Assembly (NCBI GenBank): GCA_964650355.1
Contig: CAZYTL010000004.1
Coordinates: forward strand, 67,912 to 131,911
Reading direction: 5' to 3'
DNA: 64,000 nt
Source: an uncultured Gammaproteobacteria bacterium
GTDB taxonomy: Bacteria; Patescibacteriota; Microgenomatia; CAYXHB01; CAZYTL01
Positions 12,959 through 43,674 of this stretch are shown here, piece by piece. Position 1 is the first letter of the stretch, and every line of letters starts with the position of its first letter. The notes under the pieces are model-generated. The model was not told the origin of the DNA, ran no database searches, and saw only the letters and a list, made by a program, of their open reading frames with translations. Position numbers and translations under genes: made by a program.

Positions 12959-13772
12959 TCATCCTCTCCACTCTCTAATCGCCTTTTCATAATTTCTAGG
13001 CGTCGACACTTCATACCAGTCACCCTCAAAAGTAAACCCCGCTAACTTGCCATCCTTTACTAATTTAGGGAACACATCATTGTCCAAATCAGCCTTTCCT
13101 CGTACCGGAATATAGTCAAACACCTCCGGACTAAACACATAAAAACCTGCGTTAATCAAATTTGCCGTCTTCTCAGACGATTTTTTCAAAAATTTCACAA
13201 TTCGCTCTCCTCTCAACAGCACCATTCCGTACCCCTCAGTTTCCGCCTTCGCCGACAAAGCCATCGTCGCCACATATCTTTCTTCTTGGTGATAATTCAT
13301 CAGCTCTCTGAGGTCGATCTTTGCCAGCACGTCCCCATTCACCACCAAAAACGGCTGCTGTTTAATTAATTGAAGTGCATTTCTAATCGCTCCCGCACTT
13401 CCCAATTCCTGCTTTTCCTCGCTATATCTGATCCGCATTCCCCACTTCCTCCTTAATCTTATCTCCCAAATGACCGATAGCCAAAATCACCTCTCTGATT
13501 CCCGCTTCCTGCAGCATTTCCAGTGTGTATTCGATTACCGGTTTCCCTCCCACAGGAATCAAAGCCTTCGGCACTTCATAAGTCAACGGCCGCATCTTCA
13601 CCCCTTGCCCCCCTGCCAGCACCACAGCCTGAGTCACCTTAGGATTCAATACCTGCGACAGCAAATACTCGATCGCGTGTGACCGGTTACGGATCTTCAC
13701 GCCGTCAATCACCTCATCCAATCTCTGCAGCACATCCCCCCGCAAAGTAATAGTCAATCTTTCCCTATCCAT
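12959..13772 (-). pseudogene. Sugar-phosphate nucleotidyltransferase with N-terminal ribbon-helix-helix (CopG/NikR-like) domain, split by a +1 frameshift in a C4 run near 13440 (pseudogene or sequencing artefact)
   Basis: The upstream ORF (13422..13772) carries an RHH-like RLTITLRGDVLQRLDEV...NRSHAIEYLL plus AVVLAGGQGVKMRPLT (the GxGxR NTP-transferase motif). The downstream ORF (12959..13438) continues with EEKQELGSAGAI. Removing one G from GGGG on the coding strand restores ...EEVG-MRIRYSEEKQELGSAGA. Confidence 0.6.
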
Positions 13773-34591: not shown

Positions 34592-35308
34592 TCAATCTTC
34601 TTCTAACTCCATCCCTGAACCTGCCACTCTATGCGCTACCAACTTTACCCCTACTCCCACAGTCTTGAAATACGCATCCCGAACCGGAGGTAAAAACGTC
34701 AACCCAATCAACCTTCCTCCCTTTTCTGGCCTTAACAGTTCCATCGGGATCTCCAAATCTGCAATTCTTAAAAACGGCTCGGCAAAACCTTCGCAACTTA
34801 TTCCCTCCTTTTGCCATTCATTAAGCGCGTCTGACATAATCCTTTCAATCTCCGGATAATGTCTTCTCGGATCAACCGCTTTTTTCTTCTCGCCTAAAAC
34901 ATGCAATAACTTCTTTACCCGCTCACCCATCTTCAACGGCCGATTCATCTCTCGCTTCATTTCATCAGATACTGCCTCCTCACTATACTTCCACTCTTCA
35001 AATACCAGTCTCCTGTCACCGGCTGACACAGAATTCACCGCCCGGTTCCAACCTTCGCGGAAAGCAGCTCTTACTTCATCACCCTCCGCTCCATAAAAGT
35101 CCCCTGCCTTCATCAGAGTTACCAATGTGGCCGCATCATAACCCAACGACCAAGCACCGAAGCCTTCCCTCGATTGCCAACCCAATAAAACATTCCCGGT
35201 TTCCTGGGCCAATTCTTTCAACAAAAACCCTTTCTTTTCCTCATCCCATCTCTCACCACCTATCCCCTCAACGGTTTCTAGAGGAACAATCTCCGTTTCT
35301 TCTGCCAT
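34592..35308 (-). CDS. Hypothetical protein, 238 aa
   Basis: Long ORF; no motif. Confidence 0.5.
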   Translation of the reverse strand: MAEETEIVPLETVEGIGGERWDEEKKGFLLKELAQETGNVLLGWQSREGFGAWSLGYDAATLVTLMKAGDFYGAEGDEVRAAFREGWNRAVNSVSAGDRRLVFEEWKYSEEAVSDEMKREMNRPLKMGERVKKLLHVLGEKKKAVDPRRHYPEIERIMSDALNEWQKEGISCEGFAEPFLRIADLEIPMELLRPEKGGRLIGLTFLPPVRDAYFKTVGVGVKLVAHRVAGSGMELEED

Positions 35309-35370
35309 TATCTCATTTTACCCCAACGCTACCGGATCCGTCATCATCTCTAATCCTCCACCTCTTCATC

Positions 35371-35559
35371 CTACCCCGCATCCCAATCCGGCCGAGTAAT
35401 CGCCACATACTCCAAACCTTGGGTTTCAATATGATGCTTCACCTTCGGCTCCACAATCACCAAATCCTTCCCTTTAACCTTATATGCCTGATCACCTATA
35501 CACAAAAGCGCATCACCTAAGTAACAATTTACAAGTACCCTATAATAATATATACTCAT
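35371..35559 (-). pseudogene. Displaced 3' fragment of a cupin gene, paralogous to the C-terminal half of 36124..36462
   Basis: KVKGKDLVIVEPKVKHHIETQGLEYVAITRPDW closely matches EVKAKDLVIVEPKVKHHIETRGLEYVAVTRPDW of the intact cupin. Nucleotide identity is about 85% over roughly 150 bp (35345..35495 against 36125..36275). Confidence 0.6.
35528..35556 (+). promoter_or_regulatory. Putative sigma70-type promoter TTTACA-N17-TATACT, with the ATG 6 nt downstream (possible leaderless transcript)
   Basis: Read directly upstream of 35563. Confidence 0.4.
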
Positions 35560-35562
35560 AAT

Positions 35563-36120
35563 ATGAGTGGATATATGGACTGGTATTTTGACGATCGTGA
35601 AACTAAAGTCTATACAGTACGAGAATACTGGCGATATCTGTGTCTTGCTAATTCAACAATCGACGCTTTAAAAGCTACCGGCAACCAATTATCCCCACGC
35701 GAGGAACTAGACATCAGATTCTACCGCGCTCAGCAACTCGAGGAAAAGGGCATCCAAAACTGGGATCATCATAACGACCACAGTTTTATCACCTCTGCGG
35801 TGTCTTCATATGGACTAAAAGTTGAAAGGCATACTGCCACAGATTATCAAGAATTAGTCCGCAACACTAATGCTGACCAAAGATTTATTCTCTATCTTAC
35901 TCGAAGCGTTCGTCCCAAAAACTTCAGACACCCGCACACTATACATTTGGCTCGAGAAGTTACTTCTTCTTTCCGCAGCGGAGTCTTAGGGAATGATGGT
36001 AGAATATACTCAGAACCCAGAATCAACTTGGCATTAGAAACAAACCTAGACCACTTTAGGCAGTTTGGCATGGACTTCAATATCTGGCGCATCTTTCGGC
36101 CAGGTTCCTCCCCTACCTAG
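35563..36120 (+). CDS. Hypothetical protein, 185 aa, single gene of an inserted cassette flanked by cupin 3'-end direct repeats
   Basis: ORF bounded precisely by the two cupin-homologous segments; own promoter-like sequence. Confidence 0.55.
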   Translation: MSGYMDWYFDDRETKVYTVREYWRYLCLANSTIDALKATGNQLSPREELDIRFYRAQQLEEKGIQNWDHHNDHSFITSAVSSYGLKVERHTATDYQELVRNTNADQRFILYLTRSVRPKNFRHPHTIHLAREVTSSFRSGVLGNDGRIYSEPRINLALETNLDHFRQFGMDFNIWRIFRPGSSPT

Positions 36121-36123
36121 CAA

Positions 36124-36462
36124 TTAGTCCACCTCTTCATACTGCTCCGCGTACCAATCCGGACGAGTAACCGCCACATACTCCAAACCTCTAGTCTCAA
36201 TATGGTGTTTTACCTTCGGCTCCACGATTACCAAATCCTTTGCTTTTACTTCATAAACTTCGTCCCCCACATAAAAAGTCCCCGAACCTTTGACAATAAA
36301 GAACATCTCATGGCAAACCCGATTCAAACACCGCCCCTTCTCCGGCACCCTAGACTTCACCCGCTGATAAGAAATCCCCACTTTATCATCCGGCATCGGA
36401 TAATCCCACACCACCCAATCCTTTACAGGAAACTTTGTCGTGTCTGAAAATTTAATAAGCAT
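36124..36462 (-). CDS. Cupin-domain protein, 112 aa
   Basis: Small beta-barrel cupin-like sequence with a His-containing motif VKHHIE. Confidence 0.65.
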   Translation of the reverse strand: MLIKFSDTTKFPVKDWVVWDYPMPDDKVGISYQRVKSRVPEKGRCLNRVCHEMFFIVKGSGTFYVGDEVYEVKAKDLVIVEPKVKHHIETRGLEYVAVTRPDWYAEQYEEVD

Positions 36463-36513
36463 AATCTAAGCAAAAAATTTCAATCACTTTAAATTTTTTT
36501 TAAATCAAACCCG

Positions 36514-37065
36514 CTAATCAGAATTTCTTAAATCGCTTTTAACATGGTCAGGTAAATTATCAAATGAAAACATCCCTTGTTCACAATATCTCTTAAGTCT
36601 TTCATTCAACTCTAATTTATCAAACATTTGGTTTGTAACAGGCAGAATCGAAGCCTCACAAATTTTAGGACACACGATTCTAACAAACTTTAACAACTTA
36701 TTAAGCTTTATATCTACAATACTCCAATGAAGATGTTTATGAGAAAAACCCACTAAGTCATCATCAATTTGTTTCAATTTGAAGTTTTTTCCCAACTCTT
36801 GGGGTTCCAACAGCACATACCCTTTGGATTTTATCCCATCTTTAGTTATTGCCATTCTGGTAACAACCAGATCAATTTGACTTTCATTTGTTACTCTCCA
36901 TAGAGATAATTCACCATTCACGACCTTAAAATCTTTAAATTCTTCATCATCAAGCACGTCCCCGGGCAAATTATCAGGCTTGTATGTTCTGATCTTCCCA
37001 ATATTAACTTTCTCTGGAATCTTTCCCCACTTTTTTGGATTAAACGTCCTCAAATACCATACCAT
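36514..37065 (-). CDS. Hypothetical protein, 183 aa (third gene of the AT-rich operon)
   Basis: Tight spacing with upstream genes; AT-rich codon usage distinct from neighbours. Confidence 0.55.
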   Translation of the reverse strand: MVWYLRTFNPKKWGKIPEKVNIGKIRTYKPDNLPGDVLDDEEFKDFKVVNGELSLWRVTNESQIDLVVTRMAITKDGIKSKGYVLLEPQELGKNFKLKQIDDDLVGFSHKHLHWSIVDIKLNKLLKFVRIVCPKICEASILPVTNQMFDKLELNERLKRYCEQGMFSFDNLPDHVKSDLRNSD

Positions 37066-37076
37066 GCTTGTTAAAC

Positions 37077-37709
37077 TTAAGTTTCTGCCCTACTTAATCG
37101 AGTTAATAGTTTGTGAATCATTCCTTTTAGCAATGGGTTACTCTCTTCTCCTTCTCTCTCCCTTAACTCGTCAATCAAAGCTTGTGCATCCATTTTTGAA
37201 ATGTACATCACGACACCATACCTCAAATCATAGAAACTACTTCTCAACACTCTTTTAAGTAAGGATCTTCTTTCCAGATCATCGGTATATTTGGTTAACT
37301 TAGCAATTATGGAAATTAATTCGCCTAAAAACTCTTGCCTACTTTCATCTTCCACGTCCACCTTAGCTATTTCGCTCTCAATATAATTTAGTATTTCTCC
37401 CGAATTCAATCTAACTAAATCGTACAATTTATCGTATGTTTTGCTAACAAATGCTTCATTCTGGCCTGCATTAGAAGAAACCAAAAACTCCTTATAAACC
37501 TCTTCTAGCTTTTCTGGCATTGTTTCCTCATACAGAGGTTGATATTCATCAGAGGTACTTGAATTTTCTACAACAACAGCGACACCAGGCCTTCCTATTT
37601 GTGTCGTTGTGCCCATTAATCTATTTATCTCAAACAACTGATTAAGGTCATATTTTGGTTTATCAAAGGGATCTGTCCGGCTAGTTCGTGTTAAGTTATT
37701 ATCAGGCAT
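37077..37709 (-). CDS. Hypothetical protein, 210 aa (second gene of the AT-rich operon)
   Basis: Same as above; 11-nt gap to the next gene. Confidence 0.55.
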   Translation of the reverse strand: MPDNNLTRTSRTDPFDKPKYDLNQLFEINRLMGTTTQIGRPGVAVVVENSSTSDEYQPLYEETMPEKLEEVYKEFLVSSNAGQNEAFVSKTYDKLYDLVRLNSGEILNYIESEIAKVDVEDESRQEFLGELISIIAKLTKYTDDLERRSLLKRVLRSSFYDLRYGVVMYISKMDAQALIDELREREGEESNPLLKGMIHKLLTRLSRAET

Positions 37710-37713
37710 ATTT

Positions 37714-38472
37714 TTATATTCCTTTCTTGCTTATGCTTTGTCCAATAGAAACCAACTCTCTAAATAGGTCCGTTAAAGAGACCTTAGTTAACTCACTGCT
37801 TGATTCCGGTTTGGTATTTATATCCAGTTCTAAATTACTTAAAAAAATGTCCTTTGTAGCAGATTTTGTAACATTATCCGACGTTTGAGGGCTTACTCTA
37901 AGAACAGCCCATTTTGTTAATCTATTTATTTTTATCCCCTGATTAGTCTTTGCTTCAATAGGTTTATTGATCTGAAACATAAAATTCTCTGTTTCTCCTG
38001 GTTCAATATCAAGTTTTAAATAAGAATTAATATCTTTGTAACCAACTTCCCTATTTGGAACCTGATTTACCAAAATCGCACCAAAGGCGAGTCTAGATGC
38101 CTTTATGTCTGAACACTTTTCAATAAATTTTTGCGTAACATTCAACCACCCTTCTTTGAGATTCTCAAGACTACCTAAATTAGTAAATTCCAAAGAGCCG
38201 TCTTCTTCAAAAAGGATATCTTGTTTTGTACGATATACGAAATCAATACGCACAGGAGTTTTGATTAACTCCAAAATACCTTTCTCATAATCACCCACTA
38301 ATCTAAATTCTCCACTATTTGGAGAGAAGTTTCTTGAATCTGGCTTCGAGTCCAATAATTTTTCCCATATTTCATCTACTTTCAGATCAAAGTTTAGTTT
38401 GGGAAATAAAGTTAGACGAAACAACTTAACACCCCAATTAACATTTTTTTCGTACTTTCTTTTCTTTACCAT
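37714..38472 (-). CDS. Hypothetical protein, 252 aa (first gene of the AT-rich operon)
   Basis: Same as above; 4-nt gap to the downstream gene. Confidence 0.55.
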   Translation of the reverse strand: MVKKRKYEKNVNWGVKLFRLTLFPKLNFDLKVDEIWEKLLDSKPDSRNFSPNSGEFRLVGDYEKGILELIKTPVRIDFVYRTKQDILFEEDGSLEFTNLGSLENLKEGWLNVTQKFIEKCSDIKASRLAFGAILVNQVPNREVGYKDINSYLKLDIEPGETENFMFQINKPIEAKTNQGIKINRLTKWAVLRVSPQTSDNVTKSATKDIFLSNLELDINTKPESSSELTKVSLTDLFRELVSIGQSISKKGI

Positions 38473-38735
38473 ATATCTATCAAGAATTATACCTCAAATT
38501 AAAATATCCTCCAATTCGCATTTATATTTCCTCCTCACTAAGCTTCTGGAGTAATTCACCTCTTATATTTAACCAACCAACCCTCCGTATTCCTCAGACT
38601 GCAGAACCTACTTCGACCCCCTTAAACAAACACCCCAGGCAGGACCCGAGGCAGACGAGTTAAATTATCTATTCGCAGTCTAACAGTTAAAGCGCTAATT
38701 ATCAACTCCAACCCACCTCTCACACCCACTCAAAA

Positions 38736-41012
38736 TCACCCCACGGTCTGCTCTCCCAGCATCCCCTTTGGTCTGGGTCGTCTCACCGGACCCGACCTCC
38801 GGATATCAGTCCCCACACACCATGTAAACTTAGTACCTTCAGGGAAGCGCTTTCTTTTATGAACTAAATCCCGTTCCAGCCTTTCACTCATCTTCCACAC
38901 CGTTTCCACCTCAGCATCAGCTGGCAACTTCATCTTCCTCCTTAACCAAGCCTGATATGCTCTATTCGCATCCCCGGACGGCTGTCCAAAACTCACATAA
39001 CCAGTGGTCGCAACTCTTTTAGGCGTCCTCTTCACATGAGGTCTTACCGCATGAGTCGGCGGGCCCATTGGCTCTGCAGGGTTCTTCTCCTGTTGCACTC
39101 CAATATTATCCGCATTACAACACGATTCCCGAATCAAAGGGTTCACCACCGCATATTCCATCCACCATTTGATATTATGAGGCAAAGGAGGATCAAAATC
39201 CTCAAATTTAGGGCCAAAGTCCCCGTAACCTACATGACAAACCAGATCCCGATTAGTTTCAAAATAAGGTTTTTGTGGCTTTAACCTAATAATCACATCC
39301 CAACCACCTTGTTCATCATTTTCTTTAATTTCTACATTCCTGATTAACTTTGACAACCCGTGACCCTTAAAATCATACCTATCCCATTGGGTATCTTGAT
39401 AAAAATCCCGCATTTTTTGCTGTTGTTCCAAACTTCTTTGCAACGCTAAAATTGAATTTCTTTTCACATCTTCAGGCAACCATCTCTCCAATGCTAATGC
39501 CACCTCGTTAGTCGGCACCACATTTTCGACTAAACAATATATCGAGTCCTCCTTCGGTAAATTTCTCGCCGTTGCAAAACCAGACTTATAAATTTGACTC
39601 TCGGTTAATTCACTCATGACCTCAATTAATTCCTCCCTATCTCGATTCAATCTTTCTTGAAGTAACTCATTGATTCTTACATAATCCCACCTTCCTTCGG
39701 CTTCAAACATTGCGTAACCAGACGCCCCTTCAATTACAAACCAGGTACCAACGACCTCCTTACCTTCTCCTTTGTAACTCGCACCAAACCTATTCTTCAC
39801 ATCTTCTATCACCGCTAACACCAAGTCCGCACCCACCTCTTCATAAGTTCTGGATCTCATCGGCAACCCCCTATACAGAATATTCTGCGGATAAGGCAAC
39901 TGACTAACATCCAGCCCAAAGTCAACTGGCTGATCAAGATATAGATTGTATAAATCACGACTATCACCCATCAGCCTCTCGTCATACTCTAATAATTGCC
40001 TCACCCTCTCCGAATTTCTTATATCCGACCGAGCCGCTTCCATCAACTGCGCTGAAACCGGATAATTGGCTATCGCCCACCATTGATCATCACGCAACTC
40101 AGTTCCCATTGCCTGCCCAATCAAAACTCTTTCTTGCTCAGGAATCCCTTTCAACAATTCAAACAATAAGTGCGGATATGATCTTTGACTACGCAAATAC
40201 TCAGCCGCTGCTTCTATCCTCGCTGCTACCAACAACTGGGATCCCTCTTGCGCTTCAAACTTGGGCTCCCATCCAATTCTCTGATTTAGCAAATGCGAAC
40301 TCTGTAAAATGTCCTCTGACTTCGTGTGCATATCATCCCATTCCGGATCCATCATCGAATTTGTCACCTGAATCGCTTCCCAGGCGGGAGATCCGCTTGA
40401 ATCACCCAACGACGGTAGTCGCAAAATTTTAGGAAATCCGCCCCCTACTAACCTATCAAATGTGTGGGCTGACACCAAAAAGTCACTTCCCGTAGGCTCC
40501 CTTGAAGCCATTCCTAATGCATGTAGCGTATTCACCACTCCCCTAGTATTAAAACCGGTTCCGGTATATTGATCTTCGATCACCCCGGTCAATACCCTTT
40601 CGGTTAACCTTCGTTCAAAAAATAACCTGTCACTCACTCCTTCCACTTCCTCTCTACTTAACACCATCGTACTTGCATCCCATAATCGGACTGCCTTTCT
40701 CTCATCTAGCCGTACCTCTGCATCCTGCCAATAAACAAAATCTCCAAAGATATTAACCATCCGACCCAAGGTTGCATCCAAATTCGCTATTCCCTGTCTT
40801 GAATTTCTTCCCAATAAACCCAAATCGTCTCTTCTCAAAGAAGCTAACATCAGAAACTCACCCAATCTCCATGGTTCATGTTTTAATACAGCAGCATTAT
40901 GTTGTCCGAAATGGCCACTATCTGTATCCTGTACTCTTTGAGGTAAATAAAACTCACCCTGTTCAATCGAGACTCTCTTTGACATACCTTTAAATGCAAC
41001 TTCACAAACCAA
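38736..41012 (-). CDS. Hypothetical protein, 758 aa
   Basis: Long ORF with normal GC; no recognised motif. Confidence 0.6.
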   Translation of the reverse strand: MVCEVAFKGMSKRVSIEQGEFYLPQRVQDTDSGHFGQHNAAVLKHEPWRLGEFLMLASLRRDDLGLLGRNSRQGIANLDATLGRMVNIFGDFVYWQDAEVRLDERKAVRLWDASTMVLSREEVEGVSDRLFFERRLTERVLTGVIEDQYTGTGFNTRGVVNTLHALGMASREPTGSDFLVSAHTFDRLVGGGFPKILRLPSLGDSSGSPAWEAIQVTNSMMDPEWDDMHTKSEDILQSSHLLNQRIGWEPKFEAQEGSQLLVAARIEAAAEYLRSQRSYPHLLFELLKGIPEQERVLIGQAMGTELRDDQWWAIANYPVSAQLMEAARSDIRNSERVRQLLEYDERLMGDSRDLYNLYLDQPVDFGLDVSQLPYPQNILYRGLPMRSRTYEEVGADLVLAVIEDVKNRFGASYKGEGKEVVGTWFVIEGASGYAMFEAEGRWDYVRINELLQERLNRDREELIEVMSELTESQIYKSGFATARNLPKEDSIYCLVENVVPTNEVALALERWLPEDVKRNSILALQRSLEQQQKMRDFYQDTQWDRYDFKGHGLSKLIRNVEIKENDEQGGWDVIIRLKPQKPYFETNRDLVCHVGYGDFGPKFEDFDPPLPHNIKWWMEYAVVNPLIRESCCNADNIGVQQEKNPAEPMGPPTHAVRPHVKRTPKRVATTGYVSFGQPSGDANRAYQAWLRRKMKLPADAEVETVWKMSERLERDLVHKRKRFPEGTKFTWCVGTDIRRSGPVRRPRPKGMLGEQTVG

Positions 41013-42386: not shown

Positions 42387-43674
42387 TTACTGTTCAATAT
42401 AATCCCTTAAAGTTCTGGCCTTTTGGGGAAGTCTTAATTTTCGTAATGCTTTAGCCTCAATCTGTCTGATCCGCTCCCTGGTCACCCCAAATTCCTGACC
42501 CACCTCCTCCAAAGTCCGCGATTGGCCATCAACTAAACCAAATCTCATCTCCAAAACTTTTCTTTCTCTATCAGATAATTCGTCTAATAAATCTCCAATT
42601 TTTTCTTTTAATAACGCCTCCACGGCTGCATCTTCTGGTCGAATCGTTCTTTCATCTTCAATAAAATCTCCTAACGTGCTGTCTTCCCCTTCCCCCACCG
42701 CCTCTTGTAGAGAATCTGGTTGCTGAGTCAATCGGCGAATTCCCTTTATTTTTCTCACCGCCTTATCCCACTTCTTTCTAACCGTCGCATCAAGTTTGGG
42801 TGTTTCTCCCTCCATCCATTCCCTGATTGCTCTTATATCCTCCTCACCCAAAAGTCCTATTTCCAATTCCAATGCTAATTCTTCTTCAGTTGGCTCTCGC
42901 CCCTTTTCCCCGAGCAACCTTCTTTGCCCGCGATTCAGACGACTAGCAGTCTCAAGCATGTGCACCGGCAGTCTGATTGTTCTTCCTTTATCGGCCAGCG
43001 CCCGTGTTATAGCCTGACGGATCCACCAACTAGCGTACGTAGAAAACTTATATCCTCTCCGATAGTCAAATTTTTCCACCGCCCTTATTAGCCCCCACAT
43101 TACCCTCCTGAATTAAATCTAGGAAATGTAAACCACGACCCTGATATTTTTTGGCCACACTGACTACTAACCGTAAATTAGCCTCAATCAAATGCTCTCT
43201 GGCTCGCTCGCCTTCCTCTACTTTTCTTTCCAATTTTTTTCTTTTCCCTTCATCTAATTCACTCGCTTCTAATTTCTTCGCTGCTTTCCGGCCCCGTTCA
43301 ATTTTTTTAGCCAGACTCACCTCTTCTTCTTGAGTTAACAAGGGTCTTCTAGCAGCTTCCCTCAGATAAAAACCCACTGGATTATCCCTCGGATTTAATC
43401 CCCCATCGTCTCCCTCATCTTCAATGGTTAGCAATTCTTGTTCACGTTCAATTTGCACCTCTAAATCCTTTAATTGCTCCTCTGTAGGCTCCTTATCGCT
43501 ACTCTCATCCCTTCCCACATCTCTAGCCAGACCCCCTCCTCCTCTTCTCTCATCAGCTGTCTTCCGCGCATAAAATTCCCTTCCTGAAAACAAACCTGGT
43601 CTACCTCCCTCATCCGCCCGAATCCCCTCCGGCAATATCTCGGGACTAAAGGCAAATTCAGGACTCAACACCAT
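42387..43674 (-). pseudogene. rpoD: RNA polymerase sigma-70 (RpoD-like), interrupted by a +1 frameshift in a C5 run at 43094..43098 (pseudogene or sequencing artefact)
   Basis: The upstream ORF ends [41 protein letters not shown]; the downstream ORF begins [34 protein letters not shown] (region 2.3/2.4) through regions 3 and 4. Deleting one G restores the canonical [15 protein letters not shown]. Confidence 0.8.

Follow-up and report, generated by a model that had tools for sequence, protein, structure and literature searches.

A Cupin Gene End Duplicated around a Single Gene: The Scar of a DNA Insertion or Rearrangement

Within the window (the whole stretch of DNA analyzed here, 64,000 nucleotides), a block of minus-strand genes between positions 34592 and 41012 contains just one plus-strand gene, a 558-nucleotide open reading frame (35563..36120) encoding an orphan protein of 185 amino acids that has one distant homologue (P0007). 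Convergent with it is an intact minus-strand cupin gene of 112 amino acids (copy B; 36124..36462), which matches the Pfam profile Cupin_2 (PF07883) with 36.5 bits against a gathering cut-off of 27.2 (E = 4e-9); its stop codon is TAA at 36124-36126, and the stop codons of the two genes lie 3 nucleotides apart. On the far side of the 185-aa gene is a displaced cupin 3' end, also on the minus strand (copy A; 35350..35520), recognized by translation, three-way alignment, and tblastn. Directly downstream of copy A and co-directional with it is a gene for a 238-aa orphan protein (34592..35308, minus strand); the 41-nucleotide spacer between the original stop codon of copy A and this gene (35309..35349) carries, on the same strand, a promoter-like ATGACG-18-TAAAAT match (35344-35315).

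The two cupin sequences form a direct repeat of 150 nucleotides with a period of 771, the left copy at 35357..35506 (within copy A) and the right copy at 36128..36277 (within the 3' part of cupin B), identical at 79% of positions in an ungapped alignment. The best blastn segment of the repeat covers 128 nucleotides at 83.6% identity (E = 3e-32). At E<1e-5 the whole 64-kb window yields no other non-self match, and neither a third cupin fragment nor any other partial duplication was found within it. An earlier sequence-only reading of this DNA had claimed direct repeats of the cupin 3' end around a single gene, and the alignment bears this out: the repeats bound the insert, the upstream copy provides the last ~55 codons of cupin B and thereby completes the intact gene, and copy A extends to its own stop codon. 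That reading had also counted 30 of 35 amino acids as identical, which is about right for the core, because the central stretch (KDLVIVEPKVKHHIET.GLEYVA.TRPDW) agrees between copies A and B at 27 of 29 residues. Homology between the copies stops precisely at the stop codons. At the 5' edge of the repeat, identity drops from 80-95% to 55% and then to 40%, and no sharp identical core is seen there; the longest identical run, 19 nucleotides (35401-35419), lies in mid-repeat.

Copy A represents roughly codons 58-113 of another cupin allele and is 68.5% identical to the cupin B protein over 54 amino acids (tblastn, E = 3e-20). Its 5' boundary is fuzzy, falling between 35507 and 35530, and no trace of the 5' half was left in the translation or the three-way alignment. 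The copy has no indel and a single premature stop, an in-frame CAG to TAG change at 35371-35373, beyond which the original stop codon survives at 35350-35352. At residues that are invariant in copy B and in the cupins of two relatives (R and L012, described below), it shows changes of its own (E to K, Y to D, Q to stop, and Y to D). The remnant had earlier been placed at 35371-35559; cupin homology runs instead from about 35520 down to 35350, and the 62-aa open reading frame that begins with the ATG at 35559 opens with about 13 codons that are not cupin and run antisense through the promoter region of the 185-aa gene. The sequence marks the 62-aa "protein" (P0004) as a pseudogene fragment, which corrects its public annotation as a protein.

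The sigma-70-like promoter proposed earlier for the 185-aa gene, TTTACA-17-TATACT on the plus strand, is indeed found at 35528..35556, as a pattern match with 10 of 12 positions matching. Its -10 hexamer ends 6 nucleotides before the ATG, a spacing equal to that at the promoter-like site of the 238-aa gene. Because a TANNNT hexamer lies 4-10 nucleotides upstream of the start in 21 of 45 genes and Shine-Dalgarno-like motifs occur in only 6 of the 45, a leaderless start of the 185-aa gene, suggested by these start-site patterns, is plausible.

The 558-bp reading frame described earlier is present and is a genuine gene. The homologue search that had been suggested for its product, run against 1.84 billion representatives, returned one distant match, P0007 (33% identity over 173 amino acids, E = 8e-19), which is not encoded beside a cupin gene: on its contig (L011) the P0007 gene follows an HhH-GPD glycosylase gene in an ordinary row of co-directional genes. 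The 185-aa protein has no match in Pfam, PHROG, PADLOC, or NCBIfam and no sequence-profile match to any peptidase family or PDB chain, and no relatives of its gene were found in viral contigs (IMG/VR), GenBank phages, or PLSDB plasmids. An AlphaFold2 (AF2) model built from the two-sequence alignment reached a pLDDT of 74 and a pTM of 0.75. Its best fold matches in the PDB are weak, though without exception papain-like (best E = 1.8e-3; TM 0.37-0.52), led by AvrPphB (E = 1.8e-3) and followed by Josephin, staphopain, C39, and phytochelatin synthase. Cysteine C27 at the start of helix 27-38, histidines H125 and H128 in strand 125-129, and D145 are conserved between the 185-aa protein and P0007. 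On the model and these residues, the protein is a candidate papain-like Cys/His enzyme.

The GC3 skew of the 185-aa gene is -0.43, compared with a mean of -0.58 (sd 0.11) for the other plus-strand genes. The gene thus carries the extreme strand bias of the host, and so has either been in place for long or was acquired, already in this orientation, from a relative with a like bias, a point that weighs against the import reading set out below. The strand bias of the 238-aa gene is fully host-like (GC3 skew +0.68), and its product has no homologue but itself among 5.8 billion proteins; it is presumed to be the original downstream neighbor of the cupin gene. An adjacent 183-aa protein gave a faint, non-significant PADLOC match to "homing endonuclease" (E = 0.004), and its single-sequence AF2 model (pLDDT 34) was unusable.

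A search with the cupin protein recovered one related cluster only (R, nine contigs, L002-L010), and a scan of genome contigs recovered one Parcubacteria MAG (L012); two metagenome scans, with the cupin alignment and with a 758-aa neighbor, found nothing. Cupin B shares 80% amino acid identity with its homologue in R (P0005) and 52% with that in L012. The sequence-only reading had held that an ancient pair of tandem cupins, with the intervening gene conserved in relatives, would speak against it; both relatives carry a single cupin gene and lack the 185-aa gene. A convergent gene directly follows the cupin in both of them, as it does here. In the comparison with insert-free relatives that had been proposed, R and L012 thus have one cupin and no insert, but neither flank in R or L012 is syntenic with the window, and the nine contigs of R share no flank with it, so that no true empty site is available. 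The cupin stands in an unrelated neighborhood in each genome, and so evidently moves between contexts.

Cupin B and its homologue in R differ with a dN/dS of 0.09 over the full gene, and by its pattern of substitution cupin B is under selection. A possible chimeric structure of cupin B was considered and rejected, as its 5' half (80.5% identity to R) and its 3' half (77.6%) do not differ in this respect, with R too distant to inform. Copies A and B differ with a pS of 0.57 and a pN of 0.10, giving a dN/dS of about 0.06-0.10 (0.055 in the core), with synonymous sites near saturation; nucleotide identities are 79% for A and B, 77% for A and R, and 76% for B and R. Because the divergence is mostly synonymous and near saturation, a recent duplication in place is ruled out; such a duplication would have left near-identical copies, but these are 79-84% identical. 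An old duplication shared with the relatives would have left both copies in them, but both are single-copy; an old duplication confined to this lineage is possible. The divergence fits a history in which one of the 3' ends evolved in a working gene at another place. The mostly synonymous differences, at a distance from B comparable to that from the cupin of R, further show that copy A resided in a functional gene, selected as a whole, for almost all of the divergence, and that its disruption is comparatively recent. In a quartet with L012 as outgroup, sisterhood of A and B was slightly favored (7 versus 5 versus 3 sites), not significantly. The orphaned 3' end is in this respect a molecular fossil, testifying that both ends diverged as working genes before being brought together.

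No integrase gene is present between the repeats, as had been stated, and the absence extends further: no Pfam match to an integrase, transposase, or resolvase was found among the open reading frames of at least 100 aa in the 64-kb window. Terminal inverted repeats, attC-like sites, and target-site duplications were looked for at the ends of the insert, and none were found. Nor does the insert recur at the same target elsewhere, since the contig carrying the sole homologue of the 185-aa protein among the 1.84 billion representatives (L011) contains no cupin sequence. The earlier interpretation of the locus as a site-specific integration footprint consequently stands in part: the geometry of a displaced 3' end is there, but no recombinase or sharp core was found, and the single gene of the ~0.6-kb insert looks like a papain-fold enzyme, not a mobility gene. 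The locus is a real scar of DNA insertion or rearrangement, and nothing shows that a mobile element with an integrase of its own made it.

The best reading of this scar, which we hold tentatively, is displacement of the cupin 3' end by imported DNA through host recombination. The resident cupin gene would originally have been followed directly by the 238-aa gene. DNA of ~0.77 kb from a related yet well-diverged genome would then have been joined into the resident cupin gene near codons 58-65, bringing in the last ~55 codons of that genome's cupin allele together with the convergent, promoter-bearing 185-aa gene. The resident 5' half would then read into the imported 3' end, yielding the working 112-aa cupin (36124-36462), and the resident 3' end (35350 to about 35520) would have been pushed 771 bp downstream, where copy A, presumably no longer translated as a cupin, would be beginning to decay. 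We infer here which copy is resident and which imported, the joint arrival of the 3' end with the 185-aa gene, and the route by which they recombined.

The joint itself may have been made by host recombination acting on incoming DNA, either homology-facilitated illegitimate recombination (HFIR) or a single crossover with a circularised fragment, with no dedicated integrase. Published HFIR events involve ~1 kb, and when a circularised fragment enters by a single crossover, 109-950 bp of a gene end are duplicated around the insert (PMC3240628); the 771-bp unit, in which no recombinase gene was found, fits this size range of ~1 kb for recombinase-independent insertion (PMC3240628). As in the cases described from S. 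pneumoniae, A. baylyi, P. stutzeri, and E. coli conjugation, about 1 kb of foreign DNA would have been taken up with no dedicated recombinase (PMC3240628). HFIR would be expected to leave a homologous anchor on one side and, at the other junction, 3-10 bp of microhomology and a loss of resident DNA. Those cases, however, are laboratory events with a known donor and recipient, whereas no donor or empty-site recipient of the cupin locus was found in the collections searched, and the identity of its repeats is low for a RecA-dependent crossover. At ~80% identity and with no identical run longer than 19 nucleotides, a RecA-type crossover inside the repeat would be inefficient, which counts against the displacement reading.

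HFIR has also been put forward to explain how gene 3' ends are displaced at T6SS effector and Rhs loci (PMC5361080). At Rhs, CdiA, and T6SS effector loci, as in the reading proposed here, the 3' end of a resident gene gives way to an incoming module and the old end is left as an orphan downstream (PMC5361080). The displaced ends at those loci encode variable toxin domains and are accompanied by a co-directional immunity gene, whereas the two ends at the cupin locus encode the same conserved C-terminus, the gene between them is on the opposite strand, and the cupin is no polymorphic toxin. On the first two of these grounds, the orphan module of a polymorphic toxin was rejected as an explanation. 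Were displacement by host recombination the true history, the locus would be a clean natural example of an uncultured bacterium with a small genome gaining a gene and keeping the target gene, apparently without mobile-element machinery. The same geometry is also produced by site-specific integration or by the truncation of an old tandem paralogue.

In the second of these histories, which is possible but rather unlikely, A and B would be old tandem cupin paralogues, and the later insertion of the 185-aa gene would have come with a deletion that took out the DNA between them along with the 5' half of the downstream one, leaving its 3' end. Synonymous saturation under strong purifying selection is typical of paralogues that have long coexisted, both copies carry the host strand bias, and the quartet leans, within its non-significant 7 versus 5 versus 3 sites, toward A and B as sisters. 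Against these points, the cupin is single-copy in both relatives found, no residue of the 5' half of A survives, and at least two events are needed, a duplication and then an insertion-deletion that happened to stop 3 nucleotides from the stop codon of B.

It is unlikely that a site-specific integrative element targeting the cupin 3' end and bringing a replacement end produced the locus, whether one now reduced to a single cargo gene or a small satellite that depends for its movement on an integrase encoded at another place. A close precedent is e14 (or phage 21) in icd of E. coli K-12, where, as here, the last ~55 codons are duplicated directly around the insert (PMC13626634), the upstream copy completes the working gene, the downstream copy (the icdC pseudogene) is an orphaned 3' fragment, and the differences are mostly synonymous. 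Measured as a benchmark, the icd/icdC repeat is 165 nucleotides long with 92.7% identity, 11 of its 12 differences fall at third codon positions, and homology continues to the stop codon. This shared geometry, a cupin gene that is reconstituted and under selection, relatives with a single cupin, and the 19-nucleotide identical run (35401-35419), which could be a core, favor such an element. However, e14 is 15.2 kb long and carries intE, xisE, and many phage genes, whereas the cupin insert is about 0.6 kb with one gene of predicted papain-like fold rather than a recombinase, and the open reading frames of at least 100 aa in the 64 kb include no recombinase. The e14 repeats have an 11-nucleotide identical run at a sharp 5' edge; the cupin repeats agree at 79-84% of positions and their 5' edge is fuzzy, although decay in the pseudogene copy could have erased a core. 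The cargo gene has a single homologue, which occurs without a cupin, and the viral, phage, and plasmid collections contain no match to the cargo gene.

The polarity might also be reversed, with cupin B and the 185-aa gene native and the DNA to their left foreign, running from the middle of a cupin into the 238-aa gene and joined illegitimately upstream of the promoter of the 185-aa gene. In agreement with this arrangement, the cupin is directly followed by a convergent gene in both relatives too, and the 238-aa gene is an orphan. It is nonetheless improbable: a foreign fragment beginning in mid-cupin would have landed 0.6 kb from a resident cupin by coincidence, unless cupin homology guided it, and the strand bias of the 238-aa gene is that of the host.

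More doubtful again is the proposal that the 771-bp unit, made up of a replacement cupin 3' end and one gene of predicted papain-like fold with a leaderless-type promoter, is a minimal, integrase-less mobile cassette that specifically targets the cupin gene of these probably Parcubacteria-like bacteria and is moved in trans; if true, it would represent a new class of tiny gene-end-replacing element in very small genomes. The insert resembles an integron gene cassette in being a single-gene insert of ~0.6 kb. It differs in having a promoter-like site of its own and a flanking repeat that is a gene end and not attC/attI; no attC-like imperfect palindrome was found, nor any integron integrase among the open reading frames of at least 100 aa.

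A metagenome assembly mis-join of two cupin strain variants, conceivable given the metagenome source and two other window genes that look frameshifted, is hardly credible, as an independent Logan assembly of run SRR14802573 yields a 6,184-bp contig that is identical and runs through the insert and both copies, copies 80% identical do not collapse or mis-join, and unique sequence containing a real gene lies between them.

The cupin locus reveals no new kind of system. It does add a two-member family of previously unannotated proteins, the 185-aa protein and P0007, with a probable, predicted papain-like Cys/His fold.

The sequence-only reading held that the 3′ end of a cupin gene is duplicated around a single ORF, and our analysis bears this out. 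A direct repeat of 150 nt (35357-35506 and 36128-36277; 79% identity, no gaps, spacing 771 nt) joins an intact cupin gene on the right (copy B) to a cupin 3′ remnant on the left (copy A). Its best blastn segment (128 nt, 83.6%, E 3e-32) is the sole non-self match at E<1e-5 in the entire 64-kb window, placing the repeat far beyond chance. The intact gene (36124-36462, minus strand) encodes 112 aa with a Cupin_2 match above the Pfam cut-off. Copy A, identified by cupin-frame translation of the minus strand, reads ...GDQAYKVKGKDLVIVEPKVKHHIETQGLEYVAITRPDWDAG-stop-DEEVED-stop, which corresponds to the last ~55 codons of the cupin; an in-frame TAG (35371-35373) replaces a Gln found in all homologues, the original stop (35350-35352) lies seven codons further on, and there is no trace of the 5′ half upstream of the remnant. 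Most safely stated, the locus is a 3′-end displacement scar, with two diverged cupin 3′ ends and a single orphan gene between them; one end completes a working gene, and the other is orphaned and decaying. The displaced copy that had been placed at 35371..35559 is indeed a cupin remnant, except for its start codon (ATG, 35559) and initial ~13 codons, which are antisense of the promoter of the neighboring 185-aa gene. Public protein collections list this 62-aa ORF (35371-35559, minus strand) as a predicted protein (P0004); it is a mis-annotated cupin 3′ pseudogene fragment.

Copies A and B were compared with the cupin of a related organism (P0005; 80% aa identity, nine short contigs, L002-L010) over the 141 nucleotides common to all three. 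Nucleotide identities are 79% (A and B), 77% (A and the relative) and 76% (B and the relative), and the differences cluster at third codon positions. Nei-Gojobori analysis of A and B over 47 codons gives pS 0.57 and pN 0.096 (dN/dS about 0.1; 0.055 in the core up to W103), the same substitution pattern as between the intact genes of B and the relative; the copies thus diverged nearly to synonymous saturation while both were part of selected, working genes. A recent in-place duplication is ruled out by the near-saturated synonymous sites and the purifying-type dN/dS. Unique changes number 11 in A, 12 in B and 16 in the relative, the A branch being no longer than the others. Copy A is richer than B or the relative in unique changes at first and second positions (6 of 11), and departs from B, the relative and a Parcubacteria homologue at four residues that these three keep invariant, a pattern consistent with function having been lost comparatively recently. 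With the Parcubacteria cupin as outgroup, a quartet analysis gave no significant preference (site split 7:5:3). Identity between B and the relative, compared as a check on chimerism of B, does not differ between the two gene halves and speaks neither for nor against it.

Both in this relative and on a Candidatus Parcubacteria MAG contig (L012; 52% identity), the cupin is single-copy, with no 185-aa gene or cupin fragment nearby; the paired cupins with a conserved intervening gene that would have pointed to ancient tandem duplication were thus seen in neither. The flanks of these cupins have nothing in common with the window at the DNA or protein level, the 238-aa neighbor downstream of copy A (34592-35308, minus strand) has no homologue at all, and further metagenome scans for related loci, with the cupin alignment and a 758-aa neighbor as queries, gave no matches; these comparisons yielded no true empty site. 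On contigs L002-L004 of the relative, the pair formed by a 296-aa ORF and the cupin has an HTH gene and a PIN / PhdYeFM toxin-antitoxin pair close by on its upstream side, so this cupin is also in a variable-looking neighborhood. Downstream of the relative's cupin, a 340-nt intergenic region contains at least eight direct and inverted copies of TCACCGCAC / GTGCGGTGA (L005, 1468-1646), a motif not enriched in the window.

We tentatively prefer an origin in which DNA incoming from a diverged relative would have been joined by host recombination; this preference is based on the lack of a recombinase among window ORFs of at least 100 aa, the fitting size and the change of cupin neighborhoods between relatives. 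Possible routes would be homology-facilitated illegitimate recombination or a circularised fragment entering by a single crossover, an event known to duplicate gene ends over 109-950 bp (PMC3240628); 3′-end displacement has also been proposed at T6SS and Rhs loci (PMC5361080). That copy A is instead an old tandem paralogue, later truncated by insertion-deletion, is possible but less likely. The locus adds one more case of a known kind of recombination footprint, from a lineage that is poorly sampled, and its by-products are a mis-annotated pseudogene and an unannotated, probably papain-fold, protein family.

The sequence-only reading proposed site-specific integration at the cupin 3′ end. In Escherichia coli K-12, we measured such a case: the 15.2-kb prophage e14, which encodes intE and xisE (PMC13626634), lies between the final 165 nt of icd and the icdC pseudogene. 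Identity between the icd and icdC repeats is 92.7%, with 11 of the 12 differences at third codon positions; their sharp 5′ edge carries 11 identical nt in a row, and homology stops at the stop codon. The cupin locus has the same geometry, which supports the proposed integration in part, but it lacks an integrase, a sharp core and element-like content: over 35470-35530, identity drops stepwise (80-95%, 55%, 40%), and the longest stretch of full identity, 19 nt, is mid-repeat. A remnant of site-specific integration is possible but rather unlikely. As had been noted, no integrase lies between the repeats, and no window ORF of at least 100 aa matches a Pfam family of integrases, transposases or resolvases; the insert ends have neither terminal inverted repeats nor an attC-like structure. 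The window is chromosomal, encoding CysRS, sigma-70, PFOR, NiFe hydrogenase and many glycosyltransferases. The reverse polarity, with the left-hand DNA as newcomer, is improbable, and an assembly artefact is unlikely given that an independent Logan assembly shows the whole structure again.

The gene between the copies (35563-36120, plus strand) is convergent with the intact cupin gene, 3 nt separating the stop codons, and is the lone plus-strand gene in a minus-strand block (34592-41012). Its 185-aa product has no match in Pfam, PHROGs, PADLOC or NCBIfam, and when 5.8 billion proteins were searched by word index, nothing but the protein itself came up. Scanning 1.84 billion representatives exhaustively with HMMER, however, gave a single real homologue (P0007, of 195 aa; E 8e-19, with 33% identity across 173 residues), indicating a genuine coding gene. 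The P0007 gene follows an HhH-GPD glycosylase gene on a 1.8-kb metagenome contig (L011) with no cupin sequence and no extreme strand bias. A moderately confident AlphaFold model from the two-sequence alignment (pLDDT 74, pTM 0.75) has weak matches to PDB folds (best E 1.8e-3, TM 0.37-0.52) that are consistently papain-like (AvrPphB, Josephin, staphopain, C39 peptidase domains, phytochelatin synthase and pseudomurein endoisopeptidase). Residues common to both proteins, C27 (start of helix 27-38), H125/H128 (strand 125-129) and D145, fit the papain-like fold, and the two form an unannotated, probably papain-fold, family; no test applied identified the 185-aa protein as a recombinase or nuclease. 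Third-position GC skew of the gene (-0.43) is at the weak end of the plus-strand range (mean -0.58, sd 0.11), so the gene is either a long resident or originated in a similarly biased relative. Residues 134-152 (SGVLGNDGRIYSEP) match a motif (GGVLGNDGKIYGIP) of which two unrelated large proteins, P0008 and P0009, carry four to seven repeats; the likeness probably amounts to a single beta-hairpin motif. The D of this motif, D145, is also kept in P0007.

The promoter-like TTTACA-N17-TATACT reported ahead of this gene is present (35528-35556), its -10 ending 6 nt before the ATG, a spacing shared with the 238-aa gene. TANNNT hexamers end 4-10 nt ahead of the start codon in 21 of 45 window genes (about 8-9 expected by chance, as a rough estimate), several being perfect TATAAT or TAAAAT at 6-7 nt, and Shine-Dalgarno-like motifs are rare (6 of 45). 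These motifs suggest that leaderless mRNAs occur widely in this organism, and a leaderless start of the 185-aa gene would fit this habit as a pattern match.

The strand bias of the window (G 9,180 vs C 19,930; overall GC skew -0.37) is extreme, uniform and far above usual bacterial replication skew. All 1-kb bins fall within -0.14 to -0.52 regardless of gene strand, and the skew at third codon positions is about -0.6 for plus-strand genes and +0.6 for those on the minus strand. The relative's contigs (L002-L010) share the bias (0.28-0.48); it is absent from L012 (-0.10) and L011 (0.06).

Immediately upstream of the intact cupin gene begins a low-GC stretch (36463-38472; 33-36% vs about 45-47%) that may be an acquired island. 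It carries three co-directional orphan genes (183, 210 and 252 aa), for none of which Pfam, PHROG, PADLOC or NCBIfam gave a significant match; a structure model built for the 183-aa protein from its sequence alone was too poor to use (pLDDT 34). Two other minus-strand genes are apparently split by frameshifts into overlapping ORFs: a sigma-70 factor (43066-43674, regions 1.2 and half of region 2; 42387-43100, the rest of region 2 and regions 3 and 4) and an NTP_transferase (13422-13772, profile positions 2-54; 12959-13438, positions 75-245). These could be pseudogenes, assembly errors or cases of frameshifting.
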